From Candidatus Bathyarchaeota archaeon (GTDB taxonomy: Archaea; Thermoproteota; Bathyarchaeia; Bathyarchaeales; Bathycorpusculaceae), in NCBI GenBank assembly GCA_963768425.1, contig CAVYHV010000015.1:24427-88426 (forward strand): a stretch of DNA of 64,000 bases, written 5' to 3'. The translations under genes were made by a program, and so were the position numbers. A model generated the notes under the pieces. The model was not told the DNA's origin, did no database searches, and worked only from the letters and a program-made list of their open reading frames with translations. Shown one piece after another: positions 16,398 to 36,213 of the stretch. Each line of letters begins with the position of its first letter. Position 1 is the stretch's first letter.

Positions 16398-16419
16398 CAA
16401 GTTAAGGTAGTGTTTAACT

Positions 16420-16788: not shown

Positions 16789-16912
16789 GTAACAAGTGAA
16801 AAACACTTTTTTGTTTATTTTCGAGGAATGATGCCATGAAATTCACCCAAAATACCTCACCTTGACTGTTTTTGAGAAAAAAAGCTTACTGGTGATGTCA
16901 CCAATAGTCAGA

Positions 16913-16970
16913 GGTTCAAATCACACTAACACGTTCGGTTCAAATCACACTAACACGTTCGGTTCAAATC
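16913..16970 (+). repeat. 24-bp tandem repeat (2 units plus 10 bp) running into a tRNA-3'-like tail
   Basis: GGTTCAAATCACACTAACACGTTC x2, then GGTTCAAATCCCATCGGATCCGCAC. Confidence 0.9.
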
Positions 16971-17121
16971 CCATCGGATCCGCACGTAAATTCATCAAAT
17001 TAGTTTTAGTGGTAAATTGGCGTCAAAATCCCCCGCCTGATACGCGCACGCTTTCTTGCCCAGATGGGAATCTCGCACACCGTTTAGGTCGAATTTAAAA
17101 AACTTGCTTATGTGATAAAGA

Positions 17122-18821: not shown

Positions 18822-19127
18822 GGTTACACCATATTTCCACCGTACCATCCGTAGCCTTATAAGCGGTCGCTTTTAATCATGGATCTTTAAGAAACCAAAA
18901 AAATTTCACCTTCAGCATTCTTGCCGAAGAATCAACGGCTTAAGCCTTCAAAAACTTCAATAACGGTGTAACTTTGTATTTTAAGGGCAAAATTGAACCT
19001 TTAAATAGCACATACATTAGCTTTCACCGCCGTTTTGTGTTCACTGGTGTTGTCAGCCTCAACACTTAAAACAGATGCCCAGAATTCGGCTGATTGGCGC
19101 TTATACACATAGTCAAAATATCCTAGT

Positions 19128-19165
19128 GACGGTTTAAACGACGGCGTCAAGCTAGCCCTCGGCAC
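19128..19165 (+). repeat. att-like site R1
   Basis: GACGGTTTAAACGACGGCGTCAAGCTAGCCCTCGGCAC; last 11 nt equal tRNA-Phe 4192-4202. Confidence 0.9.
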
Positions 19166-19306
19166 TTTTGCTTATTTTATGCTTGTTTCTTGACAATTTC
19201 TTGGTTCTTCGCAAAGAAAGGGAAAAGTACACTCGCTTTGGCTGTTCAAACCTCCCGGACCATAATGCAGTTAGAACTCTGCAGGGTTCAAAACCCGTAG
19301 AGTCCC
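19155..19306 (+). repeat. conserved unit left arm, copy 2
   Basis: homologous to 4192-4322 plus 5959-5985 and to 28055-28208. Confidence 0.85.
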
Positions 19307-19479
19307 AAACTCGAAGCCTGATACAATCCCCTTAAATAATTATTCATCTGAATTCCAATCCTCTCTTGATGCTCAGAAGGCCGAGACCGTCTGGCCTCCA
19401 CCCAACCTACTTTAAAAGACCTTGGCCATGTTGTCTAAAAAAAGACAATGCAGAATTGCCTTCAGAGAATTTAGAGTTT

Positions 19480-19588
19480 GCTGAGGCTCTGGAAACTAAG
19501 GAAGAAAAGTTTTTTCTTTAGGAGAATAAAGAAAAATGCAAATTCTTCAATTGCAGCTAATTTGAAATGTAACCAGAGCCTTCTCGGC
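19480..19588. repeat. about 105-bp inverted-repeat-bounded element, copy A
   Basis: GCTGAGGCTCTGG...CCAGAGCCTTCTCGGC; homologous to 23671-23776 and 33351-33455. Confidence 0.8.
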
Positions 19589-19672
19589 GCCCATTCTTTT
19601 ATCGCTCCATTTTCTCATGGTTTTAAAGGACTAAAAAAAGGAAAAAAGGAATTTTGTGTTGGTTTTTGTTGT

Positions 19673-22393
19673 TTACGGGTGTTTTCTTGTGACGAGGAGT
19701 GCGAGTACCGCGCCGATTACGATTATGATGATGGCAATTGCTATAATTCCGTATTCGACTGTGGCGTTTGACGCTAAACCTGTAGTTGGTGTTGATGTTG
19801 GTGCTGCTGTTGCTGCTGCGTTTTGTACAGGAATGGCGGTTTCTGCGCTTGAACCCCAGTAACCATTAGTGCCTGAGAAGGTTGCAGTAACAACGTATTT
19901 GCCTGGAATACTTGGAGGCGCCCACATGTAGCTGAATGCGCCTTTTGAATCAGTTGTTGCGGTGCCAAGAGTAATGAAGTTGCCGTTCGGGTCTGTGGCA
20001 GTCAACGTTACTGTAACGCCTGTGAAATTAGTTGGTTCTGGCTGCTGCTGATAAACGTAGCCCATCCAAGCCTTCATGCTTGTTTCAGAGCAAACTGGGA
20101 CTCCATATGGAAAGTCTGCTTTCTGTTCTGTTTGCTGTGTGCCAGCGGAAGTATCTATCACCGTGCCCTGAATAATTACGCTGTTGCCTGCTGTGACAGT
20201 AGTCAGTGGCGCCTGTACAGTAGTAGCACTAGGTCCTCTGCCTACAACGTAGATTGAATTGTCATAACCGTTAAACCATGTATTATAGCCATCAGCCATA
20301 GCATAGCTCATCTGCCCGAACTCGGCGGTTACGCCAGAAATAGTCCATATCTCCTGACCTGTAGTAGCGTTAATAGCCCGTGCTTCCGCGCCCTTGTAAA
20401 TCGGCGTTGTCCAAGTATGTGCACTGGTAACTGTGTAAACTATTCCGTTGCCAATAGCTTGCAGCTGGGTTGGATAAACACCATAAGGATAGTTTAAGCC
20501 GGCGTTAGTACTGTTGCCTGCGCCGCCATTGCCATAAGTCCACAATAGCTTTCCAGTCAAATCGTTGTAGCAATAGACTGTTCCTCCGTATGCGCTGCTG
20601 TAAAGATGACCATAAGCTACCGCGCCAGGTAATGTGCCTTCCGATGTACTGCCATAGTAATCAATAGCTTGTTGTGGTGGAGCCGTCCATAAATAGCTAC
20701 CGTCAGTTAAGCTGTATCCAACCCATTGGACACCTTCTTTGTAATCCTGCATAAAGACGCGAGTGCTCCAATCGACTGGGCCTTGCACGACTGTGTAGTT
20801 ATTTGCTGGCGCTTGAAGTGTTTTCCACCATAGGACCGAACCGATTGCCCCCTTAGATGCGTTGAGGTTAACAAAGAAGTACGTGTAGGGAGCTGAGCTT
20901 ACCCAACTGTAAAGCGCGTTTTGGCCGTTTGAAGGCATAGTACCGTTCATACAAAGTAACCCATCATTGTAGTTAGCTGAAACAACGATAAATGGCGCGG
21001 TCATGGTGTTGATATATGGTGTCGAAACGTTCCAGTCATAATAGCTTCCGCTGCCCCCATCAATTGTGCCCGTTGGGCCTCCCGGCGCTGGCCAAAGGTT
21101 CCATGCAAACAACAGAGATGAGTTCCACTCAGCAAGATTCCAATTTGGTTTCGCTGTTGTTCCTGCGTTTGCAAAGACATAGTCTAAGTAATTACCGTCT
21201 GGCCCCATTGCCCTTGCAGAGCCCTCAAGGAACGGACTAGGTGGACTTCCTAACTGTGCATTGGTGTATACGGGAATGTTAGTTACATTTAACAAAGACT
21301 GCCCTGTGTCACCGTCATAAATCAGCCAACTTGAACCAATTACAGCAACTATCATTGGCGGAGTAACTCCGTGCTCGTTCACTGTGTCAACTGATTGGAC
21401 GTACCCAAATGATAAAGGCGGTATGTTAGAGTTGCTCCAAATTTGCTGTCCTGTCCGCAGGTCGACGCAAACAGTAGGTCCGTAAGCGAATGTAAATCCA
21501 AACGGTATGGTGTTCCAATAACCTGCACCTTCAAAGCCTACTGGTTCAGTATAGTAAATCATTCCATCCAGAATTATCGGATTGTTGTATCTAATCAAAT
21601 ACGCAGATCCGTCGAAGTAAGTGTCCGCCGGAATGGCAACATTGTTTCCTCCAACTACTCCTCCAGATTGAAGCGACTTAGTCCACATAACATGGCTAGT
21701 TTGAGATCCTACAGCATCTCCAGGTGCAATCTGCATGAAGGTATTAGGTCCAGAGAGAGCATCCTGACCAGTATTCATATAGCCGCCATAGTTTGGTGCA
21801 CCGATACCTAGCCAGTTTGATGCAATCGTGTACCAGTTGGTGTTTTCGCCGTATATTGGTCGCGTCCAATAAGCGGTTGGAAGTGGGGCACCAGTCAAAA
21901 CATTAGCTACGGGTGTGCTCGAAACAGTAACCGACGTTGATGCTGAAGCAGGTGCAAATGAATCGTTAGTGTACGGGTCATCCGCTGTGATTGTTTCTCC
22001 CGGGTAAGAAAAGGTCAGGTTGTAAACGCCGAGTTGGTCAGGAACAAAGCTTGTGTGTTGATTTGAGGTTGTGTCGAAGACAGTAGGAAAATTCTGCGTT
22101 GTTACTGCACCATTAGGGGCGGTAATAGTAAGTTTATAGTTGTGGAATCTAAGGTTGTTACTTATCGATGCTCCGGGGTATGTATTGGTTAGCCACAGAT
22201 AAACTGATATTGTCTGACCGACACCGTCTGGGTTAGGCGAAGCCCAAATGTATGCGTAGGTTGGAATTTGCCATGCTGGCGTGTGTGCGTTAGCGTTTGG
22301 TATTATTATCAGTGAAGCTGTCATCAAAAATGTTAAAAGTACTGCAATAAAAACTGCCATTGTTTTACTTTTCATTTTTTTCATTTTTTTCAC
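19673..22393 (-). CDS. secreted PQQ-like beta-propeller surface protein with C-terminal TM anchor, paralog 1
   Basis: signal peptide ending ANAHTP; repeated DxxTGxxxW blades; Thr/Ala/Pro linker, TM helix, RKHP end. Confidence 0.85.
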   Translation of the reverse strand: MKKMKKMKSKTMAVFIAVLLTFLMTASLIIIPNANAHTPAWQIPTYAYIWASPNPDGVGQTISVYLWLTNTYPGASISNNLRFHNYKLTITAPNGAVTTQNFPTVFDTTSNQHTSFVPDQLGVYNLTFSYPGETITADDPYTNDSFAPASASTSVTVSSTPVANVLTGAPLPTAYWTRPIYGENTNWYTIASNWLGIGAPNYGGYMNTGQDALSGPNTFMQIAPGDAVGSQTSHVMWTKSLQSGGVVGGNNVAIPADTYFDGSAYLIRYNNPIILDGMIYYTEPVGFEGAGYWNTIPFGFTFAYGPTVCVDLRTGQQIWSNSNIPPLSFGYVQSVDTVNEHGVTPPMIVAVIGSSWLIYDGDTGQSLLNVTNIPVYTNAQLGSPPSPFLEGSARAMGPDGNYLDYVFANAGTTAKPNWNLAEWNSSLLFAWNLWPAPGGPTGTIDGGSGSYYDWNVSTPYINTMTAPFIVVSANYNDGLLCMNGTMPSNGQNALYSWVSSAPYTYFFVNLNASKGAIGSVLWWKTLQAPANNYTVVQGPVDWSTRVFMQDYKEGVQWVGYSLTDGSYLWTAPPQQAIDYYGSTSEGTLPGAVAYGHLYSSAYGGTVYCYNDLTGKLLWTYGNGGAGNSTNAGLNYPYGVYPTQLQAIGNGIVYTVTSAHTWTTPIYKGAEARAINATTGQEIWTISGVTAEFGQMSYAMADGYNTWFNGYDNSIYVVGRGPSATTVQAPLTTVTAGNSVIIQGTVIDTSAGTQQTEQKADFPYGVPVCSETSMKAWMGYVYQQQPEPTNFTGVTVTLTATDPNGNFITLGTATTDSKGAFSYMWAPPSIPGKYVVTATFSGTNGYWGSSAETAIPVQNAAATAAPTSTPTTGLASNATVEYGIIAIAIIIIVIGAVLALLVTRKHP

Positions 22394-22554
22394 TGAATTG
22401 CTTATTTATCGATCGCCTTATATGCCTTTGTTGTATAACGCAAAATAATGGACAAAACTCTTGAAATCCCACCTTTTGACTGAATATTTCACGTTTTTAG
22501 TTAATAAAGGAGAAGCATCACCAAAAAACGTCACAATTCAGTTTATGTAGCACC
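22385..22554. promoter_or_regulatory. divergent promoter block, duplicated at 26874-27044
   Basis: colinear about 170-bp similarity ending in GTTTATGTAGCACC in both copies. Confidence 0.75.
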
Positions 22555-22572
22555 TCAGGTAACAGTGTTTGC

Positions 22573-23538
22573 ATGAAAGAGCTTGAGCAGATAGATATCA
22601 AGATTCTCAAAATGCTTCTCAAAGACGGTCGAAGAAGCTTTTTAGAAATAGCTACACAATGCCACACCTCAAAAAATGTCATCTGGGCACATTACAAAGA
22701 ACTCAAGAAGGCAGGCATAATTGTTGGCGCGACTATTCAATTTAACTATCAAAAATTTGGCTACCATGGCTTAGCGACCATAATGATGAATGTAGAATCG
22801 CAAAATCTTGCAAATGTTTTCAGTCGCATTAGCGAAATCCCTGAGATGCATATGTTTCGCTACTATAATTCTGTCTATAATATCGCTGCAATCTCCACTC
22901 TGAAAAACATGAGTGATTTAGAACACGTGAAACAAGTCATAAACAAAAACAACAAAATAAATGAGTTCAAAACTTATCTTTGGGTCGATGTTCGAAACAT
23001 ACCTGAAAACATTTTGTCTGATCCTTCTGACCATCAAGATGATTATGTTTGCCCTCCAGTAAATAATCAAGAAAATTTCCAAAAAATTGATGAAATCGAC
23101 CTACAAATAATCGATGCGCTCACTTTAAATGGGCGCTTGCCATTCCGACAAATCGCTCAACAGATTGGGGCATCAACCACCACAATAACTAGAAGATACG
23201 AACGGCTTAAGAAAAATAATCTAATCAAGGTCTCGATTCAAATTAATGCGTTGAAATTGGGTTTCCAAAGCATTCTGGAAGTTAGCTTAGCATTAGCTGA
23301 TCAAAATGAGATAAACGAAGTGGCAAACAAGCTATCTAGAATCGCAGGAGTATCATATCTTGTAAAAATAAGCGGAAATTATGACTTGTCAGTCGTTGTT
23401 TTAGTAAAGGACTGTAATAACGTGGTTAAAATTAATGACGCAATCTTACAAATACCGAACATCAAAAAGATGGAAGCAACATTAAGGACACTTCCCGCCA
23501 CTTGGTCTGGGAAACGTCAATATATATCTACGTTTTGA
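22573..23538 (+). CDS. tandem (double) Lrp/AsnC regulator
   Basis: two HTH-RAM units (IDIKILKML.DGR.SF..IA and IDLQIIDAL..NGRLPF..IA). Confidence 0.85.
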   Translation: MKELEQIDIKILKMLLKDGRRSFLEIATQCHTSKNVIWAHYKELKKAGIIVGATIQFNYQKFGYHGLATIMMNVESQNLANVFSRISEIPEMHMFRYYNSVYNIAAISTLKNMSDLEHVKQVINKNNKINEFKTYLWVDVRNIPENILSDPSDHQDDYVCPPVNNQENFQKIDEIDLQIIDALTLNGRLPFRQIAQQIGASTTTITRRYERLKKNNLIKVSIQINALKLGFQSILEVSLALADQNEINEVANKLSRIAGVSYLVKISGNYDLSVVVLVKDCNNVVKINDAILQIPNIKKMEATLRTLPATWSGKRQYISTF

Positions 23539-23670
23539 TAAATTGAAAAGGAATTGTCATTTTCTTGAATAAAAACACTATTAATAGCAGATTATGGTTC
23601 GAATCCCTCCTCAGTGTGAACTTAATAAAAACAAGGAAAACAAATGATTTTTTTGAAAAAATTGGGGTTT

Positions 23671-23776
23671 GCTGAGGCTCTGGAAACTAAGGAAGAAATT
23701 TTCTTTTTTAAGGAGAAAAAGAAAATGAACATTCTTCAAGTGCAGCTATTTCGAACATGACCAGAGCCTTCTCAGC
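23671..23776. repeat. about 105-bp inverted-repeat-bounded element, copy B
   Basis: GCTGAGGCTCTGG...CCAGAGCCTTCTCAGC. Confidence 0.8.
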
Positions 23777-23851
23777 CATTTATCTTTTCATCTCTTCTTG
23801 TTTTTTGGGGACTAAAAAAAGGGAAAGGGAGTTGTGTTAAGCACTTTTAAT

Positions 23852-26800
23852 TTATGGATGTTTTCTTGTGACAAGGAGTGCTATTACTGCGATTCCCACG
23901 ATTATGACGATGATGATTGCGATACCTACGTATTCGATTGTTGATTGGGTTGCAATTCCGGTAAGAGGTGTCGCTGTTGGTGCTGCTGTTGCTGCGGGAG
24001 AGCCGGCATAGACGAAAGTTTCAGCCGCCGATGAGTAGTAGCCATTAGTTCCTGCAAAAGTTGCAAATATAGTGTAGTTACCTGTTATGCTTGGAGTCCA
24101 TGTTAATCTGTAGCTGCCGCTCTGATCAGTCGTGGCGTAACCTATGGGGTAGTGGTTTCCATTAGAGTCTAAAACAGCCAATTGCACTTGAACACCTGTG
24201 AAGTTAGTTGGTTCAGCCTGATCCTGGTAGACGTAGCCCATCCATGATTGCATGCTTGCGTCAGATGCACATGGAACCCCGTGTGGAAAGTCTGCTGCCT
24301 GTTGACTTTGGGTCGTGCCAGATGATATGTCCATCACTGTGCCGGTGATCGTTACCGGTGTAGCTGTCGTCACTCCTAGGTTAGGTGCTGAAACAGTGGT
24401 AGCACTGGGGCCTCTGCCAATACTGTATATTTGGTTGACGTAGCCGTTCATGCAGGTTATGTATCCATCCGCCGTAGCCCATTGTGGAGCAGCACTGGAA
24501 GTCCACTCGCTCGGGTATTCTGAGAGTGCCCATATTTGTTGTCCTGTTGTGGCGTTAACAGCGGTTGCTTCAGCGCCTTTGTACAGCGGGTCAGGAATGG
24601 TGTGCTCATCAGTAGCCAAGTATACTACTCCGTTAGCAATGGATTGTATCTGGGTTGGGTAAACTCCGTATGGTGTGTTTAAGCCAGCATAAGTGCTGTT
24701 ACCTTCACCACCGTTGCCCCAAGTATAGACTAGTTGTCCAGTTACGTCGTTGAAGCAGTAGAGTATTCCTCCGAATCCATCGACATAGAGGTTCCCGTAA
24801 GCAACTACTCCTGGAGGGGGTTGCCCTGGGTCGTAATAGTAATTAAAGGCGGCTGCGGTTGGAGTTGTCCATAGTAGTTGGCCCGTGTTTAGACTGTATC
24901 CTTGGAATTGTATAGTTTCCAGCGAATAAAGTGTGAAGACGCCGGTTTGGAAGTCGACTGCACTCTGTAAGAGAGTGACGTTGCCTGCTGGCGGATTATA
25001 CGTCTTCATCCACAGGATTGAACCGATTGCACCGACAGATGAGTTAAGGTTGACGGCGAAGTATGTGTAAGGAAGTTGCGGGTATCCTGCTTTAGTCGCG
25101 CCGAAACCAACGGGTAGAGAGCCGTTTCTGCAAAGCATTACATCGCCATATTTTACTGCGAGTATCGACACGGGGTTTGATCCAGTTGGCGGTTGCACTA
25201 TTTGTCCTGTGACGGCGCTGGGTGTTGCAGGTGGCGGCGGCATGGTGTTAAGCCATGGTAGTGAAATGTTCCAGTCATAAGTTGTTAATGAGCCGGAATT
25301 GATGCTTTTTATGGGAGCAGTGGTTCCAGGTGCAGCGGCATTGGAGTTAAGAGGTATGTTTGCATTCACCGTAATTGAGGAGCCGCGTGGAACGAATGTT
25401 GTAAGGCCAGTTTGGTAGATAACCCATTTCACCTACAGCTGGAATAGGGATCGTTGGAAGAAGGACTCCGTTGGATGCATTTACTGGGTCTGGTGATAAA
25501 CTTCCACCGCCGGTGTACGGATTAATGTCGTACTGCCAAAGTTTAGACATGTTCCATTCAGACATGTACCAATTTGGATTAGCAGCAGTGCCAATGTTGG
25601 TTATGACGTACTTTAATTCTTCACCGCTCGGACCCAAGATGTTATTGCTTACAACAGTATTCGGGAAGGCTACAACGCTTGGGGGGGATGTAGCTATAGG
25701 TACGACGTATGAAGTGCTTGCGGGAAGATTAGTTACGTTGAACAGCGAGTCTCCTGTGTATGCATCATAAAGCTGCCACTGGCCTGTAATTGAGTTTGGT
25801 GAGACTAAGATTGGCGGGTAAACACCATGTTGGTCGGGGTCCCAGAGGCTGTAGATGTAGCCGAATGAAATTGGGGGTATGTTTGGGTTACTCCAGAGTT
25901 GTTGTCCTGTGCGGAGGTTAATTGCTACGGTGGGTCCGCTGCCGGGGCCAGTGAATGACGCTGGTTGTGTGTAGAATAGTACTCCGTCCATTATTATCGG
26001 ATTGCTGAATCTTGGCTGATATGCAGATCCTTCGTAATAGGATGCTCCCTGAACAGCACCGCTGGGATTTGAGCCGCCGGCTGAAAACATGTTGCCTCCA
26101 ACCACTCCTCCAAATTGAAGCGGCAAAGTCCACATAAGATGAGAAGTTAAAGGTCCTACGGCATCTGTATGATACAGTGCTGCGTTTGCAGTGGCGCCAT
26201 ATCCTTCTGGCGGTCCCGAACCTGAGCCTAGCCAGTTTGACGAAAGTGGCCACCAGTTAGAGTCTGCACCGTATACTGGTTCTTGCCAGTAGCTTGTCGG
26301 TAGGGGTTCACTAGTTATAGCGCTGGAAATTGGTGCTGTTTGCACGGTGAGCGTTGTTGTTGCATTGCTAGGAAGATATGTATCGTTCACCATCGGTGAT
26401 TGGGCGTAGCCGTTGCCATTTGCGCCGTACACTTGTCCTGGATAATAAAAGCTGAAAGTGTAGGTACCAACAGCGGTAGGAGTAAAGGATGTTTCCTGAT
26501 TTGATGTTGTATCAGAGATGATTGGAAAAGTCGTTGTTGTTTTTGCCCCATCCGGTGCAGTTACGGTAAGCTGATAGCCTAGGAATCTATAGTTGTTTGA
26601 AAGTAAGGCTGCGCTCGCTGTGTAACCGTTCGTTCCGACAGCGGCAGTTGTTCCACCGGGTGCTCCGTAAACTTCAGTAAGCCACATGTAAACGTTTATT
26701 GTTTGACCGACACCTATAGGATTAGGTTCGGCAACAATGTAGGCTTGTGTTGGAATTTGCCACACAGGTGTATGTGCGTTAACGCTTGGTATTATCATTA

Positions 26801-26873
26801 GTGAAGCTGTCATCGAAAATGTTAAAAGTACAGCAATAAGAATAGCCATTGTTTTGCTTTTCAGTTTTTTCAT
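23852..26873 (-). CDS. beta-propeller surface protein paralog 2, one frameshift near 25425
   Basis: ORFs 25347-26873 and 23852-25432 join on removing one G from a GGG run; colinear with paralogs 1 and 4. Confidence 0.85.
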
Positions 26874-27044
26874 TTTTTTCCCTGAATGGCTTATTTATCG
26901 ATCTCCTTATATGCCTTTGGTGCCTAACGCGAAAAAATGGACAAAACTATAGAAATCCAGTCTTTTGACTGAATATTTCTCGTCTTTAGCTAAAAAATGG
27001 GAAGCATTATCAAAAAAACAGGATAATTCAGTTTATGTAGCACC
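26874..27044. promoter_or_regulatory. second copy of the promoter block, with no Lrp gene behind it
   Basis: matches 22385-22554, then switches abruptly to unrelated sequence at 27045. Confidence 0.75.
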
Positions 27045-27300
27045 ATCTCCAGCTTTATCCCACATCTCAAGCTTCTCATATTTCATTGCCGCCTCCTCAT
27101 ATCGCCCAGCTCTTTCAAGATTTCTGGCTTCTTCCATTATACATTCTCGTGGCGGAGGCGGAGGGACTGATAAATCTGTTCAATCTTTTCTAAACTTTAT
27201 ACGGCAACGTGGACACCAAAAGACATCTGCGAAGGTATTGGTCGGATTTCGAAAGACGAGCTTTTGTTAAAATCATGGGGATATCTTGACGCCAGTTATT
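27033..27300 (-). pseudogene. remnant of a Zn-ribbon/TPR-like protein gene truncated at the promoter-block junction
   Basis: WCPRC...*...MEEARNLERAGRYEEAAMKYEKLEMWDKAG; internal stops; boundaries approximate. Confidence 0.45.
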
Positions 27301-27403
27301 ACCATTTAATTGAGCTGATTTTTGTGTAAATTATTCTGGTGTTCTATGGTAGAATTGAAATTTGCAAAAGACCTTTTAAGGTATATTTCGTAAGCTTGCC
27401 CAA

Positions 27404-27664
27404 ATGTTTCTTCAGGTTTTGGCTGCTGTAGTTCATAACCAATTTGAAGTCATTCACCCCTTCCAAGATGGCAACGGGAGAGTCGGGCGACTATTGCTAA
27501 ATAACATATTACTAAAACATAATCTGCCACCCTTAAACATCGAATTAAAAAATCGAGCCCAATACTTCGCCGCCCTACAAGCATACGAAAAAGAAAACAA
27601 AATACGCCCAACGTTGGAGCTCATGCTAAAAGAATACCATGCCCTCAAAAAAATCATCAAATAG
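27404..27664 (+). pseudogene. Fic-domain C-terminal fragment
   Basis: canonical HPFQDGNGRVGR motif with no N-terminal part upstream. Confidence 0.75.
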
Positions 27665-27694
27665 GTGACTACAAAAAACGGAAATGTAGTCACC
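27664..27694. terminator. perfect 10-bp stem-loop after the Fic fragment
   Basis: GGTGACTACA-11nt-TGTAGTCACC. Confidence 0.5.
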
Positions 27695-27709
27695 CAGAAT
27701 TCCTGGCGG

Positions 27710-27755
27710 CTGTTTGACGTGCAGAAAGTCGCTGGCCTGAATCTGGTCCGACCTA
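27710..27755 (+). other. degenerate 3' half of a tRNA-Val(GAC)-like gene
   Basis: CTGT-TTGACGT-GCAG, variable loop AAGTC, GCTGG-CCTGAAT-CTGGT, CCGACCT-A. Confidence 0.5.
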
Positions 27756-27841
27756 CTCCCGCGTAGAAATGCTCCATTTGACTGTTTTTAAAGTATTTTG
27801 TTATTCTTGCTCCTTTAGCTCTTTGTGGTTTGAACCCGACA

Positions 27842-27971
27842 GAGGCTGTGTAAAAACTCAAATCGAGTTCAAAAAATTGCCTCAAATGTGCATTGAAATT
27901 TTTTTTAGGCCAGCATTATTTGCATGAAGCCAGCAATTTTCTGAGATCAAGAATAGTTTTTACATAGTCTG
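27842..27971 (-). mobile_element. 130-bp MITE with IS1182-type ends, copy 1
   Basis: TIRs GAGGCTGTGTAAAAACT / AGTTTTTACATAGTCTG; TSD GACA (27838-27841, 27972-27975). Confidence 0.85.
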
Positions 27972-28027
27972 GACACGGGTCAAATCCCGCCCGACCCACT
28001 CCCAAGGCACACATTTAAGGTTCTAAC

Positions 28028-28065
28028 GACGGTTTAAACGACGGCTTCAAGTTAGCCCTCGGCAC
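28028..28065 (+). repeat. att-like site R2
   Basis: GACGGTTTAAACGACGGCTTCAAGTTAGCCCTCGGCAC. Confidence 0.9.
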
Positions 28066-28208
28066 ATTTTTGCTTATTTTCTGCTTGTTTCTTGGCAATT
28101 TCTTGTTTCTTCGCAAAGAAAGGAAAAAGTACATTCGCTTCGGCTGTTCAAACTCCCGGACCATAATGTGGTTTGAACTCTGCGGGGTTCAAAAACCAAT
28201 CGAGACCC
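28055..28208 (+). repeat. conserved unit left arm, copy 3 (contains the empty IS target hairpin)
   Basis: TGAACTC-TGCG-GGGTTCA at 28174-28191. Confidence 0.9.
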
Positions 28209-28291
28209 AAACCGCTTCAGGCTCGAATCCAATCATAAAATTCTCATCTTATTTGCCCTGATCCCTTGAGATAAATAAACATGAAGAAACT

Positions 28292-28742
28292 TCACTTGGC
28301 TTCGTCTGAAAAGAGTTGCTTTCCTTTTTCTGTGATTTCGATGGCACCTACTTGCTTGAAAATATTAACGTTGTCAGTAACGTTCCAGTATTCTGCGAGT
28401 TTGCCATTAACTATACGATAGATGTCAACAGCCTCAGCTCTTATCTTCTTTCCAGTAGGACTTAGTCCCATAAATTCGCCTTTTGTGGGTCCCAGTATAG
28501 GAAAGGCGAACCCACACCTTGTTCCCTTCAGCGATGATGTCTTCAATAGATTCATGCCAATCAGGAAATGCGTTAAGACCCATAATAAATAATTGTTTGA
28601 GACCTTCTCGACCGACATTCTTGGAGCGGTCGATATAATCTGGTGCCACAAAATCGTCTATTAATTTCAAATAGTCCACGTTTCGATTATTATAGGCTTC
28701 AATAAATCTGCGAACAATCGCTTTATTCTCTTCTAAAGACAA
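28292..28742 (-). CDS. SnoaL-like ester cyclase, one frameshift in an A-run near 28485
   Basis: LEENKAIVRRF...AFPDWHESIEDIIAEGNKVWVR..YTGTHK|GEFMGLSPTGKKI; likely TTG start at 28742. Confidence 0.85.
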
Positions 28743-28907
28743 AAAATCACCAGTAAATTCTATTCTCTTTTTGAGATTTAAGCGTGTTGTGAAGTGCAAG
28801 TTTTAGACTTTAGGGCTTATCCACTTCTTTGCAGTCTATCAAAGACTCCAAGAGTAACCGTTTCCCAACGTCATTTTTAGATACTTTTCTTGTCGCATTC
28901 AAATCTC

Positions 28908-29723
28908 TTAAGTAATATCAACACGTTTTGAAGACTCGGCACTATGATCAAGAAAAAGAGCTATTAAATTCAATGTGTTGTCAGTTATCAGCTCGCGCGA
29001 TAAACCACTTTTAATTCCCATTTGATTCAAAGTCGTTCGTCTTAATTCCATCTCAGAAAGCAGACCATTCATAAGCATAGTTACATATTGAACGATAATA
29101 CTTTCTTTCATATCATTCTTTATTGTTTTATCTTTCTTGCCTTTTCTAACTGCTTTTGACCAAAACTCACCATTTCTCAACATCTGAATAAAGAATTCAA
29201 TGAAATGGGGCTCTTCAAAATATTTCTCAAATTCAAAATCTTCTAATGGCGAGAGGTCTTCAGTCAACTTGTTCAGGGTAGACTGTCCTACTTTGTTGAC
29301 GATAAGTTCAATTATGGATTCAGGCATTAAGTTCATGTTTTTAATGTGCTCAAAAGTGTCATTGGTGATCTTTAGTACTATTGGGTTGTCGATGCCATCT
29401 TTGAGTGTTTTTGCGCAAAGGAATAGAACCTGTTCTTTTCCGGATACGTCAGTTGGTAGAGTGGCAATCATGGTTTCATTGAGTTCTTTGAAGACTTTTT
29501 TTCCGACGGCAAAAAAAACATCGTTTTTGTTTTTAAAATAATTATATATTGTTGTGCGACTTACAAACGCTGCTTCGGCAATATCTTCTAGAAGGACCTC
29601 ATTTATAGGTTTTTTAGAGTAAAATTTTTCCGCTACGGCGAGAATTTCTTCTTTTGTTCTCTCTTTCTTTCTGTCGCGCAATTGTTTTTTTTCTTTGGAG
29701 GCATTGTTTTGAGTTAGTTTCAT
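28908..29723 (-). CDS. TetR/AcrR family regulator
   Basis: RTKEEILAVAEKF...LEDIAEAAFVSRTTIYNYFKNK. Confidence 0.9.
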   Translation of the reverse strand: MKLTQNNASKEKKQLRDRKKERTKEEILAVAEKFYSKKPINEVLLEDIAEAAFVSRTTIYNYFKNKNDVFFAVGKKVFKELNETMIATLPTDVSGKEQVLFLCAKTLKDGIDNPIVLKITNDTFEHIKNMNLMPESIIELIVNKVGQSTLNKLTEDLSPLEDFEFEKYFEEPHFIEFFIQMLRNGEFWSKAVRKGKKDKTIKNDMKESIIVQYVTMLMNGLLSEMELRRTTLNQMGIKSGLSRELITDNTLNLIALFLDHSAESSKRVDIT

Positions 29724-29780
29724 GACGTGAAAACATAATTGGCATCGCTGTTTATAAATATTTTACAGCTAATACATAAT

Positions 29781-29795
29781 TTTACACCGTGTAAA
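29781..29795. promoter_or_regulatory. candidate TetR operator
   Basis: perfect palindrome TTTACAC-C-GTGTAAA in the divergent intergenic gap. Confidence 0.55.
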
Positions 29796-29832
29796 TATTT
29801 ATATGCGACGTGTACTATAGTAATTAAATGTC

Positions 29833-30543
29833 GTGTTTTGTATGTCAACTGAAGAAGAAAATTTTTTGAGCAAAGAAAAGAGCGTTTTGCGATGGAGCGG
29901 TCTGGCTGGTATTCTGGCTGGAGTCTTTTTTATTTGCACCATCGTCACGCTAATTAATTTTGGGAATTCGACAACAGCCAACGTTGCGGATTTGATCACA
30001 AAGTTTCCAGATCACAGAATGGACCTTGCGGTGGGAAATGTCTTCTACTTTTTGGTCAGCGTCTCGTTAGTTGGTCTCGCGCTTGGCCTGTATCAGGCTC
30101 TTCGAAGGGCGAGCATTGGACTCCCGCTCTTCGGGACTGTTCTATTCGTTCTAGGTCTAGGAGTAACCTTTATTGAAGATACTACGCAGATCGCTTTCGA
30201 CCCGATCTCCAAACTCTATAATGCTGCCGCAGCGACCTCCACGGACAAAGCTACACTCACCCTCATATGGCAGGCAACACAGGGTATGTTCAATCAGTTT
30301 GACGTCGGAGCAACACTCCTCCTCTCCACAGGGTTAATCGTTCTTGGAGCAGCCATGATCAGGGTACCAGCTTTTGGCAAAATCTTCGGCGGGCTAAGTA
30401 TTGCAATCGGAGCGGCTCAGATCGTAGGGATATCTTTCCTTTCAACCAATTCTGCCGCATACGCACCATTCGCCCTCCTAGCCTTCTTAATCTTCCCAGT
30501 CGTCTTCGGATGGAAACTCTACAGTCTATCAAGGAAGCCATAA
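29833..30543 (+). CDS. DUF4386-like multi-pass membrane protein
   Basis: LRWSGLAGILAG start; about six hydrophobic helices. Confidence 0.65.
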   Translation: MFCMSTEEENFLSKEKSVLRWSGLAGILAGVFFICTIVTLINFGNSTTANVADLITKFPDHRMDLAVGNVFYFLVSVSLVGLALGLYQALRRASIGLPLFGTVLFVLGLGVTFIEDTTQIAFDPISKLYNAAAATSTDKATLTLIWQATQGMFNQFDVGATLLLSTGLIVLGAAMIRVPAFGKIFGGLSIAIGAAQIVGISFLSTNSAAYAPFALLAFLIFPVVFGWKLYSLSRKP

Positions 30544-30725
30544 GAAATCTTGGAATTGTTCTTGGGGGACTCCTTTTACGGAGTCTTTCAACACAATAAA
30601 CTGTGTTGGAATCCCAACGGGCCGCCATAAGAATTTTTTAAGAAGAATTGAGGATTCGCTTAGCGCGCGCTAAAGTGTTTTCAAACGCGCTTGACGCTTT
30701 TAGGCGATTGGACCTGACCCCATTT

Positions 30726-30855
30726 GAGACTGTGTAAAAACTATTTTTAATTTCAGAAAATTGCTGGTTTTATCTAAATAATGTTGGTTTAAAAAAGGAT
30801 TCAAAACATATTTGAAGCAATTTTTTGGGCTTGATTTGAGTTTTTACACAGCCTG
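30726..30855 (+). mobile_element. 130-bp MITE with IS1182-type ends, copy 2 (opposite orientation to copy 1)
   Basis: TSD ATTT (30722-30725, 30856-30859); 107/130 ungapped identity to the reverse complement of copy 1 by manual count. Confidence 0.85.
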
Positions 30856-30900
30856 ATTTGGGGTCAAATCCCACCGGACTCGCACCTTTAAAGTTCTAGC

Positions 30901-30938
30901 GACGGTTTAAACGACGGCTTCAAGCTTGCCCTCGGCAC
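30901..30938 (+). repeat. att-like site R3
   Basis: GACGGTTTAAACGACGGCTTCAAGCTTGCCCTCGGCAC. Confidence 0.9.
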
Positions 30939-31098
30939 TTTTGAGTTCAATAGAAGCTTGTTTTAACAATAAAGTCACACTTTGGAATAATTTGCCTACA
31001 ACTCAGGGATTCGTGAAATATTGAAAATGAGATGAATAGAGTCAAATTGTAGAAATCTTTTTACTTCTTGTTGCTCATAAGGACATAGGCGACTAAAA

Positions 31099-31308
31099 GT
31101 GACCCTAACAATCAATAGCGATGAACTGAAAACTGTCCTTGATAAACTAGATACGGTGAAACTTGAACTTTTACGATTGAGAGCAATGTTGTTGCCAGAA
31201 GAGGAGGCTACGGAACAAGAAAAGAAAGAGATCAAAAAAGCGAAACAAGAACTATCAAAAGGGTCAAGGATAAACCTTAAAGAGTTTATTGATGAACTGG
31301 GCTGCTGA
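31099..31308 (+). CDS. archaeal RelB-like antitoxin
   Basis: 69 aa, acidic LPEEEATEQEKKEI...INLKEF tail, directly upstream of relE. Confidence 0.7.
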   Translation: MTLTINSDELKTVLDKLDTVKLELLRLRAMLLPEEEATEQEKKEIKKAKQELSKGSRINLKEFIDELGC

Positions 31309-31315
31309 CTTCTAA

Positions 31316-31577
31316 TTGTTTGACATCACTGTTGCTCAACGAGCCCAGAAGAGTCCAAGAAGCTGCCTGAACACCTCAAACGCAGAATTGTCGAACTTCT
31401 TTTAATCTTACGGGAAAACCCAGTCCCAGCAGAATACTATGATGTAAAGAAACTGAAGGGACTGGCAGACACATATAGAATTAGAATCGGTGATTTCAGA
31501 ATTATCTATGAAATTTCTTGGGACAAAGCGGCGGTGAATATATTATATATTGGGTCCGGGAAAACGCGTATTCTTGA
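31316..31577 (+). CDS. relE: RelE/ParE toxin (missed by the ORF track; about two 1-nt indels)
   Basis: LPEHLKRRIVELL...DVKKLKGLADTYRIRIGDFRIIYEI; a repaired end reads IG.RENAYS*. Confidence 0.8.
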
Positions 31578-31580
31578 ATC

Positions 31581-31619
31581 GACGGTTTAAACGACGACAT
31601 GAAGCTAGTCCCTCGGCAC
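31581..31619 (+). repeat. att-like site R4 (followed by CA, giving GGCACCA)
   Basis: GACGGTTTAAACGACGACATGAAGCTAGTCCCTCGGCAC. Confidence 0.9.
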
Positions 31620-31839
31620 CAAATATCCTTAATTTAAGGTTATTTTGCAATATTGGGCATAAATTACAACATTATATGCGCTCTGCAAGCAGGGTAATGA
31701 GATATGAAAGAGGGAACGTTTCTACTCATAGACTTTACCGGAAAAGCAAAATATTGATTGAAGCAAACAATACTGCTTCACGATTGGAGGTAACAGATTG
31801 ATTTCGGGGACAAGGGGTCTCCAGATATTTTTATAAATG

Positions 31840-32109
31840 TTAGAGCATTTTTGAAAAGTCATCGTACACTTTGCTTCTATGGCCGACAAAAAGAATGACT
31901 ACTTGGTTTTTGTTTTGGTCTATCTCGTAGATAACTCTGTAGTCGCCTACTCGTAGACTCCAGAAATCTGATTGTTTTAGGGGTTTTCCTGTTTTGTCGG
32001 GGTTTTCACGCAGTTGCTTTGCGCTCTCGACTATTCTTGTTCGGACGTGTTTTTCAGTTTTTTGGAGTTCTTTTGCTGCTTTAGGGTGCAGAAGTACTTT
32101 GAAAGTCAC
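31840..32109 (-). CDS. relE: RelE/ParE toxin
   Basis: FKVLLHPKAAKEL...GKPLKQSDFWSLRVGDYRVIYEID...VGHRSKVY. Confidence 0.9.
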   Translation of the reverse strand: MTFKVLLHPKAAKELQKTEKHVRTRIVESAKQLRENPDKTGKPLKQSDFWSLRVGDYRVIYEIDQNKNQVVILFVGHRSKVYDDFSKML

Positions 32110-32327
32110 TCTAGTTCCTCTATAGGAATGAGGGATTCTGGGCGTTGTTTTGCTTCTTCGCTACGTTCCATGAGTGTGTTGAAGAAGTTGCATGTTTTTT
32201 CGCGTTCTTGATAGTAGGTGATGATTGATTTTATGGCGTCGCTTCGGTTTTTGAAGCGGCCTTCTGCTACCCATCCATCTATTTCCTCGAGGGTTTTTTG
32301 TGGAAGACGTAGTTGTACTTGAGCCAA
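32106..32327 (-). CDS. ribbon-helix-helix antitoxin
   Basis: QVQLRLPQKTLEEIDGWVAEGRFKNRSDAIK; 4-bp overlap with relE. Confidence 0.85.
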   Translation of the reverse strand: MAQVQLRLPQKTLEEIDGWVAEGRFKNRSDAIKSIITYYQEREKTCNFFNTLMERSEEAKQRPESLIPIEELE

Positions 32328-32426
32328 ATATGTCGCCGTAAACAGTACTGTTTACAACTCACTTAAACGTTTCCTAAACAACCATCCGAGTCCCGACCCA
32401 CTCTGTCTTGCGGATAATGGTGCAAC

Positions 32427-32464
32427 GAAGGTTTAAACGACGACATGAAGCTAGCCCTCTGCAC
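32427..32464 (+). repeat. att-like site R5, right boundary of the island (followed by CA, giving GCACCA)
   Basis: GAAGGTTTAAACGACGACATGAAGCTAGCCCTCTGCAC. Confidence 0.85.
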
Positions 32465-33350
32465 CAACTATACTTTTAAGAAAAAAGAGCTCTCGGTGAG
32501 AGAAAATGGCTTTGAGCTTGTTCTGATGCACCGAGTTTCCACGTAGTCTAATATGCTTGATCGTGTTTGTTCTGTGGCTTTTGTAAGGTTTATGGCTCTG
32601 TTTCTGGCTTTTCATTCTTTCGTCTTTCTGGTTTTCTCCATTTCTCAAAATGGTTCAGACTTTTTAATGCCACAAACAAGAGCCCGAGCACATTGGATTA
32701 TAAAGCGTACAACTGGAAGGTTTCCCGGTTGATACCGGGCACTATGCGAAAACATCTGTAGAAGGTTAGTGTTTTGAAATAATGCGTTCAAAACCAAAAA
32801 TTTTATTGGGTTAATTAGCTTGGCTTCTACCGATCCTTTCATTTCATCTGACTGGAAGAGGATAGAGAAAAGATATCAAACTCTATGAATATGTCTAAAA
32901 GGATGCGACGAGAGTAGGCTCAGCTAGATGTAGGATTATTCAGATGGAACAGTGTGCTAATTTTATTGGTTTTGATCGCTTAGAATTTCTCTCAGGAACG
33001 TCCCAATCACTGCATATTTTTTCTAACGTTAAAGCAATGGGTTGATAGGATTCATATGGCGTTTCTTTGACACCTAACATTATCTTATATGCCAAGATAT
33101 AATATAGTTATTTCATTGGCTGTAATATTACGGTTTTCGACATAAGGCTAAAATCAACAAAGATATTCATATTCTAAGTTTTGGCTAACAAGTCTTCTCA
33201 AAAAGTCTTCAATCCCGCTTTATCATAGATTTCTGTAAATGCTTTGATGATTTGAGGCTTTGCTCAGTTAAGTCTTGATTTTCTTGTGGCTTTTAGAGAG
33301 TCTATTGAAACTTGGTCAAATTGATCCAAAATTCGCACGATGTAGAGTTT

Positions 33351-33455
33351 ACTTAGGCTCTGGAAAATTAAAGAAGAATTTCTTCATAGTTAGTCGAAAA
33401 AAAATCTGCATCGCTGCCTTGCAGCAATTCGTGACGCTATCAGAGCATTCTGAGC
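33351..33455. repeat. about 105-bp inverted-repeat-bounded element, copy C (diverged)
   Basis: ACTTAGGCTCTGGAAA...TCAGAGCATTCTGAGC, followed by the same GGxCTAAAAAAAGGAAA tract as copies A and B. Confidence 0.65.
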
Positions 33456-33543
33456 CATTTCTCTATTTCAGCTAATCTCAATGTTTTTTAGGGGCTAAAA
33501 AAAGGAAAAGGGAATTTTGATTTTTTATCATGGTTGCTTTTGC

Positions 33544-36213
33544 TTATGGACGTTTTCTTGTGACGAGTAACGCGATTACGGCGCCGATTATGATAATGAC
33601 GATGATGATTGCGATGCCCATGTATTCGAGTGCGTTTTGTGTTGCTAAACCGCTGAGCGGTGTTGATGTTGGTGCTTGTGTTGGTGCTGGGGCGCTGGCA
33701 TAGAAAGCGGTTTGAGCGGAAGAACCATAGTATGCTGGTGTACCTGCGAAGGTAGCTGTGACGGTGTAGTTGCCTTTGATGTCAGGTGTCCAATTTAAGC
33801 TGTAGAAGCCGTTTGCGTCAGTTGTGGTTGTTCCGATTGAGCGGTAGTTGTTGTTGCTGTCTAAGACGTATAGTGTGACTGGAACTCCCGTTATGTTGGT
33901 CGGCATTGGCTCCTGTTCATAAACAGCTTCCATAAACTGCTCCATGCTAGCGTCAGAAACACAAGGCAAGCCATTGGGGAAGTTTGCTGCTACTGCTTGT
34001 TGCTGTGAACCTGAAGATATGTCAGTGACCATTCCTGAGATGGTTATTGGAGTAGTTGTTGATACGCCGACGGAAGGTGCGCTAACTGTTGTTTTTGTGG
34101 GGCCTACGCCATATGAGTATATCTGGTTGTCGTATGCATTGAAAGTCAAGAGTTGCCCGTCGACTACTGCTGGACATGAACCTGTGTCAAAGTTGATTAT
34201 GCTCCAGACAAGTTTTCCTGTCGTTGCGTTGATTGCGTAAAGTTTTGCTCCGCTGAATAGTGGCGGACCGTAGCAGTGTCCAGATTCGGCAAAGAGCATG
34301 CCGCCTGCAAGTGTGGCTTCGTAGTCGCCGATGATCCAGAAGGGATTGACACCGTAGGGTGTGTTTTCTCCAGCTGTTCCGTCAGTAAAGCTCCAAATGA
34401 GGTTGCCGTTGGTAATGTTATATTTGTAGATCCATCCGCCGAATGTCCATGCGTATAAAGCTCCGCCTGCACATACGCCGCTTGTTTGGTCGTAGTAGCC
34501 TAAAGGATTCTGGAAGGGAGTTGTTGGACCCCACACTTGTTGTCCTGTGGTTGTGCTGTAACCGGAAAATGTTGTCGTTTCTTTGGTATATTCAACGTAG
34601 ACTCCATCGTTAGCTCCTGGTATGGCCATGACTGTTGAATAGGGGGTTTCGGTTTGGTTCTTTATCCAAAGTTGCGCTCCAGTGTTAAGGTTATAGGCTG
34701 CTCGCATAACCCAGCCTGTGGCAAATGAGTACATGGAATACTCACCAGCGCCTGCTCCTAAGATGGCTATGTTGTTGTCTGGATCTATTACTGCGTGTCC
34801 AACTTCGTCAAGTATCCAGCTAACTCCTGGAGGGAAAGCAGTCCCTTGATAGCTGTTTGGCAGTGGTACTGACCAGACTACTCCTTTAGAGTAGGCAGTT
34901 ACAGAGTTTTGGTTTAGCGTCGAGAAGCCTAAATCAACTCCTCCGCCTATTAGGCAAACGCTGGAGTTCCAGAAGTTCAGGAATTGAGTTCCAGTGGCGT
35001 TGGTACTGGTGTAGTACTGCAACAGAATGCCGTTGCTTCCTTCAATGTTTGTAACGCCGAATGATCCTGAGGGTCCTGAGCCGTTAATGCTTAGTATATA
35101 GTTTCCGGTTGCTGCGTCAAATAGGTCAAGGTAGTTTATTCCGTTTGTCGTTCTAGTTGCCCAGAGGTAGCTTTGTCCGCCGTAAGTGTTCGGTGATTTA
35201 TACACGTATACTTGTCCGCACATCAGAAGATCATATGAACCTGGAGCAAAGTAGTCTCGATAGTTCTTGGTCCAAAGAATTTGTCCTGATCTTAGGTCTC
35301 TGGCAACCCACCCTTGGTAGGCTCCACCACTTGAATAGGTTGGGACAGCATCATAGTAAAGAACTCCGTTGATGATTATCGGTGAAAACTTAGGTTGATA
35401 CTGGAACCCTGAGTAGTAGTTGCCTTGCTCGCTGGCACCGAATTCGCCGCCCATTTGACCGCCTGGTGAGCCAGGAACTAGTGGAGTAGTCCAAAGTATG
35501 TGTGCAGAGGTTGGTGCTGTGGTGTATGGGTTGTAGTTGCCGGTGACTGCGTAGTCTCCAGTGTTTGCGAATTCTACATCTCCTAATCCGAACCAGTTGC
35601 CGTCTAATACATACCAATTGTGATTGAACGCTTCGACAGGGTTCGTCCAGTAACTAGTTGGCAGCGGATTCTCCGAAATAGTGCTTGCGGGAGTTTGCGT
35701 AACCGAGATGGTCTCAGCTGCACTGGTAGAAGCACCAAAAACGTCGCCTATTGCCTGGGTATTGGAAAACGTCATGCCGCCCGGGTTTCCTTGGTCACCT
35801 GTCAGAGTCTCTCCAGGGAAGCTAAAGACTGCAGTGTAGTTGCCTAGTTCGGTCGGAGTAAATGTCGCGGTGTAGCCGCCTGCGTCATCAGATTGGAATG
35901 GTCCCAGGACTACTTGTTTACCGTCTGGCTGCGTAATTGTGACAGAAAGGCCTACCCATCGGTCACCTAACGGCCCGAAGGCAGTAGTTGGAGGTTTGTC
36001 AACCCACATTACAAGGAAAACGTTCTGACCTATGCCTACTTGCTGAGGGACAGCTTGAAGATACGCGTAAGTTGCAATTGTTCCTTGAATATCACGCGCT
36101 TTGGTGCTTGGTACGATTGCGATTGCTGCAGAAATTGAGAGGACTAATATCAAAGCAATTGACAGAGTTTTTTGGTTTTCATTTGATAATTGCATTTTTC
36201 TTTTTTTCTCCAT
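33544..36213 (-). CDS. beta-propeller surface protein paralog 3 (intact)
   Basis: same architecture as paralog 1; RKRP end. Confidence 0.85.
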   Translation of the reverse strand: MEKKRKMQLSNENQKTLSIALILVLSISAAIAIVPSTKARDIQGTIATYAYLQAVPQQVGIGQNVFLVMWVDKPPTTAFGPLGDRWVGLSVTITQPDGKQVVLGPFQSDDAGGYTATFTPTELGNYTAVFSFPGETLTGDQGNPGGMTFSNTQAIGDVFGASTSAAETISVTQTPASTISENPLPTSYWTNPVEAFNHNWYVLDGNWFGLGDVEFANTGDYAVTGNYNPYTTAPTSAHILWTTPLVPGSPGGQMGGEFGASEQGNYYSGFQYQPKFSPIIINGVLYYDAVPTYSSGGAYQGWVARDLRSGQILWTKNYRDYFAPGSYDLLMCGQVYVYKSPNTYGGQSYLWATRTTNGINYLDLFDAATGNYILSINGSGPSGSFGVTNIEGSNGILLQYYTSTNATGTQFLNFWNSSVCLIGGGVDLGFSTLNQNSVTAYSKGVVWSVPLPNSYQGTAFPPGVSWILDEVGHAVIDPDNNIAILGAGAGEYSMYSFATGWVMRAAYNLNTGAQLWIKNQTETPYSTVMAIPGANDGVYVEYTKETTTFSGYSTTTGQQVWGPTTPFQNPLGYYDQTSGVCAGGALYAWTFGGWIYKYNITNGNLIWSFTDGTAGENTPYGVNPFWIIGDYEATLAGGMLFAESGHCYGPPLFSGAKLYAINATTGKLVWSIINFDTGSCPAVVDGQLLTFNAYDNQIYSYGVGPTKTTVSAPSVGVSTTTPITISGMVTDISSGSQQQAVAANFPNGLPCVSDASMEQFMEAVYEQEPMPTNITGVPVTLYVLDSNNNYRSIGTTTTDANGFYSLNWTPDIKGNYTVTATFAGTPAYYGSSAQTAFYASAPAPTQAPTSTPLSGLATQNALEYMGIAIIIVIIIIGAVIALLVTRKRP

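Follow-up and report, generated by a model that had tools for sequence, protein, structure and literature searches.

Organization of the tRNA-Phe locus

The stretch of DNA studied here, hereafter the window, comprises 64,000 nucleotides (C15:24427-88426) of a Candidatus Bathyarchaeota genome of 2.96 Mb that is 91% complete. It contains an intact tRNA-Phe(GAA) gene, which is followed by six units that are each closed by a copy of the tRNA-Phe 3´ end. The first five closing sites (R1 to R5) are 39-40 bp each and all lie in the tRNA orientation. G-numbers denote genomes of relatives (332 family genomes were surveyed, 120 of them in the genus) and C-numbers denote contigs; positions without a contig refer to the window. 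The locus is organized as follows.

4128-4201, + strand: tRNA-Phe(GAA), intact (ARAGORN; Rfam tRNA, 65.6 bits)
4203-19165, + strand: unit 1, 15.0 kb; long left arm, split by an IS1182-family element; closed by R1 (19127-19165)
19166-28065, + strand: unit 2, 8.9 kb; long left arm at 19166-19310; closed by R2 (28027-28065)
28066-30938, + strand: unit 3, 2.9 kb; long left arm at 28066-28211; closed by R3 (30900-30938)
30939-31619, + strand: unit 4, 0.68 kb; short distinct left arm; closed by R4 (31580-31619)
31620-32464, + strand: unit 5, 0.85 kb; own left arm; closed by R5 (32426-32464)
32465-36489, + strand: unit 6, 4.0 kb; third left-arm type; closed by R6 (36467-36489)
36536-36594, + strand: native spacer, homologous to DNA directly behind tRNA-Phe in relatives with an empty site
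ATG at 36595, flank to 37148, + strand: nitroreductase gene, native right flank

Units 1-3 contain several genes each, and their regulators are encoded on both strands; units 4 and 5 are toxin-antitoxin (TA) pairs.

Structure of the R sites and arms

R1 reads GACGGCGTCAAG, R2 and R3 read GACGGCTTCAAG, and R4 and R5 read GACGACATGAAG. An earlier reading of this DNA, made from the sequence only, had distinguished two subtypes, R1-R3 and R4-R5, and the sequences agree with that division. The R block consists of CGACGG, TTTAAA and CGACG, then a short stretch that varies, AAGCTAG and finally the tRNA core. The two direct repeats are 12 bp apart, with TTTAAA between them. GTTTAAAC occurs in every R site between the direct CGACGG and CGACG repeats, and the first repeat of R5 is CGAAGG; the palindrome flanked by direct repeats, with R5 deviating, is thus present in all five sites as had been described. 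Each R site ends with the last 10-11 nt of tRNA-Phe, (G)CCCTCGGCAC, and the shared core consists of the last 10 nt of the gene plus the following base (4193-4202). Every R site is therefore composed of a conserved non-tRNA module of ~30 nt and a 10-11-nt copy of the acceptor end. The cores of R1-R3 are perfect. R4 has one extra T just 5´ of the core, and the core of R5 has one substitution (G>T).

A left arm of ~150 bp is located behind the tRNA gene (4203-4323 and 5958-5989), behind R1 (19166-19310) and behind R2 (28066-28211), with 91-94% identity among the copies, and is absent behind R3, R4 and R5. Units 1-3 thus share this arm and the TA units lack it, which is in line with the earlier reading. 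R4 and R5 run on into CCA, whereas the live tRNA-Phe gene runs on into CAT, also as previously observed.

R6 differs in kind from the other five sites. It is a heavily decayed T-arm copy of the tRNA-Phe 3´ end that matches at 18 of 27 positions, and one chance site at another place in the window matches equally well. Two features speak for accepting it: it sits immediately ahead of the native spacer in the right orientation, and in other genera the homologous units terminate in a copy of tRNA-Phe.

Empty sites and the extent of the island

The sequence-only reading had proposed a search for relatives with an empty locus, and five same-genus genomes with a clean empty site exist (G191, G150, G122, G164 and G171). 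Each of them has tRNA-Phe, CCA and then a spacer of 69-116 bp, behind which the nitroreductase gene found at 36595 in the window begins. In G191 and G150 this spacer aligns with ~36536-36594 of the window, so the inserted DNA extends from 4203 to ~36535, which is 4 kb past the end given earlier. G016 was dropped as an empty site since it still carries 2.9 kb with a histidine-kinase gene. With an intact tRNA 3´ end, distal copies of the core and empty sites in relatives, the locus has the features of a tRNA-targeted island.

These boundaries bring in the sixth unit (32465-36489) and its decayed site, both of which lie beyond R5. The proposal that R5 is the displaced original tRNA end consequently fails, and the sequence predicted to follow tRNA-Phe in relatives, CCAACTATAC, was found behind tRNA-Phe in no relative. 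Unit 6 is 95% identical in G127 (C36); there it follows a GGCTTC-type R, and TA units are absent. The arm of unit 6 is homologous to DNA directly behind tRNA-Phe in other genera (G031, G065 and G021), and the far end of those elements is a true 30-nt copy of the tRNA-Phe 3´ end.

Conservation of the R block and its tRNA targets

An 8-mer alone is weak evidence for the repeats (6 observed versus 1.9 expected). The longer patterns are specific: a 21-nt R pattern matches 7 times in the own genome and a reversed control 0 times, and a 22-nt pattern has ~95 matches in 52 of the 332 family genomes versus 3 control matches. The R pattern occurs in 38 of the 119 other genus genomes, with further matches in four other genera. 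Alignment of 51 distinct R sites reveals a conserved block of 41 nt with sharp limits on either side, one of them exactly at ...GCAC, as is expected for a crossover boundary. The sites contain 14 hexamer variants, and the commonest of these, GTGTCA, is missing from the window. Because five of the units share an end site that recurs in 52 related genomes, the R repeats can be read as the joints of repeated site-specific insertions.

Three kinds of 10-nt core are found joined to the R module; they correspond to tRNA-Phe, tRNA-Leu(TAG/CAG) and a third tRNA whose gene ends ...CCCGCAGCA at C24:6397 of the own genome. A conserved module on different tRNA ends, always in the tRNA orientation, is the signature of integrative-element att junctions. 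Taken with the empty sites, these data uphold the earlier view of the R sites as junctions of successive insertions at tRNA-Phe.

Several further sites are present in the own genome. A small unit of ~400 bp lies directly behind the C24 tRNA (C24:5900-6400) and is closed by an R site with two core changes. At C30:73200-76900 the long-arm start is found directly behind tRNA-Leu(TAG), and a second site follows 3.4 kb on. One R site is located at the contig end at C13:102100-102200.

As an alternative, local segmental duplication could have left the repeats behind, or they could be by-products of IS1182 and of miniature inverted-repeat transposable elements (MITEs), with R not being a recombination site. 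Units 2 and 6 contain paralogous propeller genes with similar 3´ flanks, and many R sites have an IS1182 copy or a MITE 50-400 bp upstream of them; both features would be expected under such an origin. However, the cargo bounded by this R block in 52 genomes is unrelated, the inverted repeats of the insertion sequence (IS) are unrelated to R, and the empty sites are clean. When the open reading frames (ORFs) located up to 1.5 kb from 30 R sites were clustered, the IS1182 transposase was the only shared gene to emerge, and that element has its own inverted repeats and its own target duplication. This explanation is very improbable. A doubled GCTTATTTT-like word was tried as a general left-arm motif and dropped, as it occurs in only 10 of the 51 sites.

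CCA state and order of arrival

Of 32 tRNA-Phe loci in the genus, 27 encode a CCA behind the gene, the five empty sites among them, which supports the earlier assumption that the encoded CCA is ancestral. It is not a marker of the original tRNA end, because most element arms supply CCA too: they start with CA after the final C of the core. The left arm of unit 5 starts with CAAATATCC, which gives CCA when joined to this C. The CCA after R4 thus belongs to the arm of unit 5, and the CCA after R5 belongs to the arm of unit 6. The long-arm lineage starts with (A)TTTT, so that the encoded CCA is lost, and this loss places the crossover at or before the final C of the core.

Site decay rises with distance from the tRNA gene: R1-R3 are intact, R4 and R5 have one lesion each and R6 has many. 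This gradient fits an order in which distal units are older. New arrivals usually insert beside the gene, a rule that was stated for tycheposons (bioRxiv 10.1101/2020.12.28.424599). The distal-first order proposed earlier is supported to this extent and is not secure, since G127 shows internal gain or loss. The TA units are not the oldest as had been suggested, for unit 6 lies beyond them.

Exchange of cassettes between species

Unit 4 is 91% identical over its whole length in G199, including a one-letter variant of R4. The body of unit 5 is 94-95% identical in G185, G155 and G159 and 91% identical in G190. In contrast, the nitroreductase gene beside the array in these genomes is only 70-74% identical to that of the window, which indicates that the cassettes moved between species. 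In G127 the flanks are 95% identical to those of the window and unit 6 is common to both, but the neighboring units differ and a relative of unit 1 is only 72-83% identical. The arrays therefore turn over quickly.

The sequence-only reading had proposed two cassette lineages, each with its own site subtype. Among units with both ends known, which include related copies and are hence not independent, long-arm units are closed by the GACGG class in 8 of 8 cases (5 genomes) and mini or TA units by the GACGA class in 5 of 7. Together with unit 4 in G199, these counts suggest that the R site tends to travel with its unit as the right end. This part of the proposal holds; a strict pairing of two lineages with two subtypes does not, given the 14 hexamer variants and the RHH-RelE cassette of unit 5, which is closed by four different R variants in four genomes. 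A hybrid unit was observed in G099 (L089, G099:C38, 6324-9720). This 3.3-kb long-arm unit lies behind tRNA-Leu(CAG), its closing R site carries the tRNA-Phe core, and another long arm follows that site.

Homologous recombination after DNA uptake could in principle build such arrays, with the 40-nt R blocks and 150-bp arms acting as mere patches of homology. The 91-94% identity of the arms between units and between genomes is consistent with this process, as are the G099 hybrid, which pairs a left-hand Leu core with a right-hand Phe core, and the different array contents of the window and G127 between nearly identical flanks. It does not account for conservation that ends exactly at the tRNA core, for cores that fit three different tRNA ends or for the unrelated left arms of many units, and a first insertion into a clean empty site has no homology past 10-11 nt. 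Homologous recombination as the builder of the array is therefore unlikely.

Recombinases

A Pfam search of the large ORFs of the island yielded no recombinase and no PF00589 match. The six PF00589 matches of the own genome are all located on other contigs (C8, C14, C28 and C30), and no serine recombinase (PF00239) match was found in this genome, which is 91% complete. Core copies delimit each of the six units and no recombinase lies in any of them, as is typical of cis-mobilizable elements (CIMEs). The left flank of the island, which is composed of tRNA-Val and small ORFs, contains no integrase domain and is conserved in G016, which has no array.

This flank also bears on an integron-like origin, in which the R sites would be attC-type folded single-strand sites and a dedicated integrase would capture promoterless cassettes. 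The two TA units are small and compact with one site each, and toxin-antitoxin cassettes are typical of integron arrays. Integrons have also been reported in archaeal genomes (PMC9668308). Nevertheless, the five R sites fold no better than shuffled sequences (z of -1.04 to +1.03), and neither IntI nor attI is found beside the array. No integrase gene lies by tRNA-Phe, where the left flank is conserved in genomes without arrays. Moreover, units 1-3 contain several genes with regulators on both strands, and the core is a tRNA end. The integron reading is highly improbable and close to refuted.

A candidate recombinase is found in relatives. In G131, an R-type array is located between tRNA-Leu and an integrase-bearing element, and right behind the last R site of this array lies the gene of a 460-aa protein with an N-terminal Zn-ribbon and a XerA-like tyrosine recombinase domain. 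Relatives of this Zn-ribbon tyrosine integrase occur in 101 of the 120 genus genomes, with up to 13 matches per genome. The 3´ end of the integrase gene faces a tRNA 3´ end in 25 of 30 inspected loci (Leu-TAG, Leu-CAG, Leu-TAA, Cys and Arg-CCT) and an R-type or bare tRNA-end copy in two more, and the inspected loci share an arm motif ending GGCGA. The integrase lies directly behind tRNA-Phe in at least nine genus genomes, as judged by coordinates, and in five other genera. In most of the 30 loci the gene is full length beside the tRNA junction, and it is not split at two junctions as in the SSV-type (type I). Since integration leaves the gene unsplit, it belongs by the established classification to the non-partitioning archaeal type.

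The own genome has one full-length copy of this integrase, on C14. In this stretch (C14:260330-291320), an intron-bearing tRNA-Leu(TAA) gene that was missed by ARAGORN is followed by the full-length Zn-ribbon integrase gene; ~30 kb further along lie a partial copy of tRNA-Leu and, behind it, an integrase remnant of 52 aa. The arrangement looks like an integrase-bearing element beside an older remnant.

Two relatives combine integrase sequences with R sites. An integrase-arm remnant in G130 is closed by an R site, and a 37-kb integrase-bearing stretch in G194 ends in R-type sites, the only such case seen. Integrases on the same contigs as R sites in G099, G131 and G173 were set aside as uninformative, as they lie 6-50 kb off or at other tRNAs.

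Cargo and accessory elements

Unit 1 carries PAS/TrmB regulators, a PAS histidine kinase, a Rieske protein and a TIG-domain protein. Unit 2 carries PQQ/beta-propeller surface protein genes and a double AsnC/Lrp regulator, and unit 3 carries SnoaL-like, TetR and DUF4386 genes. The TrmB and AsnC regulators, like the XerA-like recombinases, are in keeping with an archaeal genome. The following features lie within the units.

4324-5957: IS1182-family element inside the arm of unit 1, with its own inverted repeats and target duplication
27842-27970: MITE in unit 2, before a tRNA-like fragment
30726-30854: MITE in unit 3
31099-31308: candidate antitoxin of unit 4, 69 aa
31324-31590: ParE/RelE-family toxin frame of unit 4, with its TAA stop within GTTTAAAC of R4
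31840-32109, - strand: RelE/ParE toxin of unit 5
32106-32327, - strand: RHH antitoxin of unit 5
33544-36213, - strand: PQQ/Ig-domain (propeller/Ig) surface protein of unit 6, 889 aa

Downstream of the stop codon that precedes it, the toxin frame of unit 4 lacks an ATG, GTG or TTG start, and the copy in G199 ends identically. A conserved stretch of ~350 bp is present 3´ of three paralogous propeller genes (19468-19818 and 23659-23997 in unit 2; 33347-33689 in unit 6). Beyond the island, the ATG of the nitroreductase gene at 36595 is out of frame with a 114-aa ORF at 36804-37148, which points to a frameshift or an assembly error. In an Rfam search at E <= 1 only two tRNAs were matched, and no known RNA was found in the arms or sites.

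Fragments that resemble tRNA 3´ ends are located at 27976-28001, 30860-30886 and 32386-32403, which is 25-45 nt upstream of R2, R3 and R5, and are similar to tRNA-Ala(CGC) and tRNA-Arg(TCT). About half of the R sites of relatives have a T-arm-like piece plus CCCTGTTTTTTAGATAATGTTGTAACGAC ahead of the R block. A T-arm-like hairpin, GGTTCAAAACCC or GGGTCAAATCCC, follows within a few bases on the 3´ side of the IS1182 element and of each of the two MITEs, which are ~130 bp long and have matching ends. Likewise, in G173, G185, G155 and G127 the same IS or MITE end lies 5-8 nt ahead of a T-arm-like sequence beside an R site. This placement suggests a target preference of IS1182 and the MITEs for tRNA-like hairpins.

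Proposed mechanism

The region from 4203 to ~36535 is probably an accretion island of at least six non-autonomous units that were stacked site-specifically at the tRNA-Phe 3´ end and moved in trans. Evidence comes from the observed anatomy of the locus, the empty sites, the family-wide conservation of R, cassettes shared across species and the presence of the integrase family at these tRNA ends. Every insertion would rebuild the tRNA gene from the 10-11-nt core CCCTCGGCAC and would leave a junction at the far end of the unit. The R block would be the right-end recombination site carried by each unit, and the sequence after the core would belong to the next unit. Lacking a recombinase, the units may be moved in trans in the manner of cis-mobilizable elements or satellites. 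The putative movers are the Zn-ribbon tyrosine integrases, which are abundant in the genus and insert at the same tRNA ends. The CGACGG repeats are candidate binding sites of the acting integrase, and the crossover presumably occurs within or just 3´ of the core.

Several observations weigh against this proposal. The left arms are diverse and share no general motif. In the own genome, no integrase gene was found beside tRNA-Phe or tRNA-Leu(TAG). The complete integrase elements examined (G130 and C14 of the own genome) end in a true T-arm tRNA copy and not in an R block, so the link between R and the integrase rests on shared targets and one composite case. The hybrid unit of G099 requires a crossover 3´ of the bases that differ between the Leu and Phe cores, or else an exchange between arrays by homologous recombination. 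Excised or circular forms were not observed; among contigs from public reads, which are short and of low depth (the best sets share <=0.15 of the sampled words), one bridges R3 unchanged and none skips a unit. For the Zn-ribbon tyrosine integrase as the mover of the units, the case is about evenly balanced.

A broader reading is tentative and stands somewhat below even chances. A portable R site with a 10-11-nt tRNA end might allow cassettes without an integrase, down to the size of one TA pair, to be captured, swapped across species and re-targeted among at least three tRNA genes by Zn-ribbon tyrosine integrases acting in trans, whether encoded by the host or by elements. The system might then be an archaeal equivalent of integron cassettes that is anchored at tRNA genes.

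Bathyarchaeia, which are uncultured, abound in sediments, and gene exchange in this group is largely obscure. The locus indicates that their tRNA genes seed fast-changing islands of non-autonomous cassettes. The R block provides a simple sequence tag for mapping cassettes across metagenomes and a defined candidate substrate for an abundant, unstudied family of archaeal integrases.

Comparison with known systems

The closest concept is that of CIMEs and tandem accretion at the att sites of integrative and conjugative elements or integrative and mobilizable elements in Firmicutes (Pavlovic 2004; Bellanger 2011; reviewed in PMC5704250). As in CIMEs, units without an integrase keep att junctions and stack in a regenerated target, and candidate autonomous relatives occur at the same target. 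Unlike CIMEs, the present units have an archaeal host and no conjugation genes, and they are as small as 0.68 kb with only a TA pair. Their right end is a conserved non-tRNA module with only 10-11 nt of tRNA, and their mobilization is presumed.

The island also resembles the tRNA/tmRNA islands with tyrosine integrases that are catalogued by Islander (PMC4383910) in its insertion at a tRNA 3´ end, the regenerated tRNA, the displaced fragment at the far end and the position of newer elements nearer the gene. Islander islands each have an integrase and a longer tRNA fragment, whereas the six units described here have no integrase and five of them end in a non-tRNA site module. By the Islander criteria, arrays of at least three were found only 4 times in 2168 genomes (PMC4383910). 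Prochlorococcus tycheposons (bioRxiv 10.1101/2020.12.28.424599) show the same repeated tRNA insertion that pushes older elements inward, adaptive cargo and partial-tRNA remnants. They differ in being bacterial, in having their own recombinase and replication modules and in using plain partial tRNAs as att sites.

Among archaeal elements, those with pNOB8-type (type II) integrases and the cryptic elements of Thaumarchaeota (PMC6563490) share with the candidate system an integrase that is intact at the tRNA junction, a XerA-like catalytic domain and a tRNA 3´-end target. Archaeal cryptic integrated elements can form arrays (PMC6563490); they differ from the present units in being defined by their own integrase and in having plain tRNA fragments. 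In literature searches of incomplete coverage, no description was found, for Bathyarchaeia or any other archaea, of cassettes that lack an integrase and carry a site of this kind, nor of the integrase family with an N-terminal Zn-ribbon. Integrons and their attC cassettes (PMC9668308) are similar as an ordered store of small exchangeable cassettes, including TA pairs, at one anchor. They are dissimilar in that the present array has no IntI beside it and no attC-type fold, is anchored at a tRNA end and includes many multi-gene units. The island is the product of a process of known kind in an unusual, little-described form.

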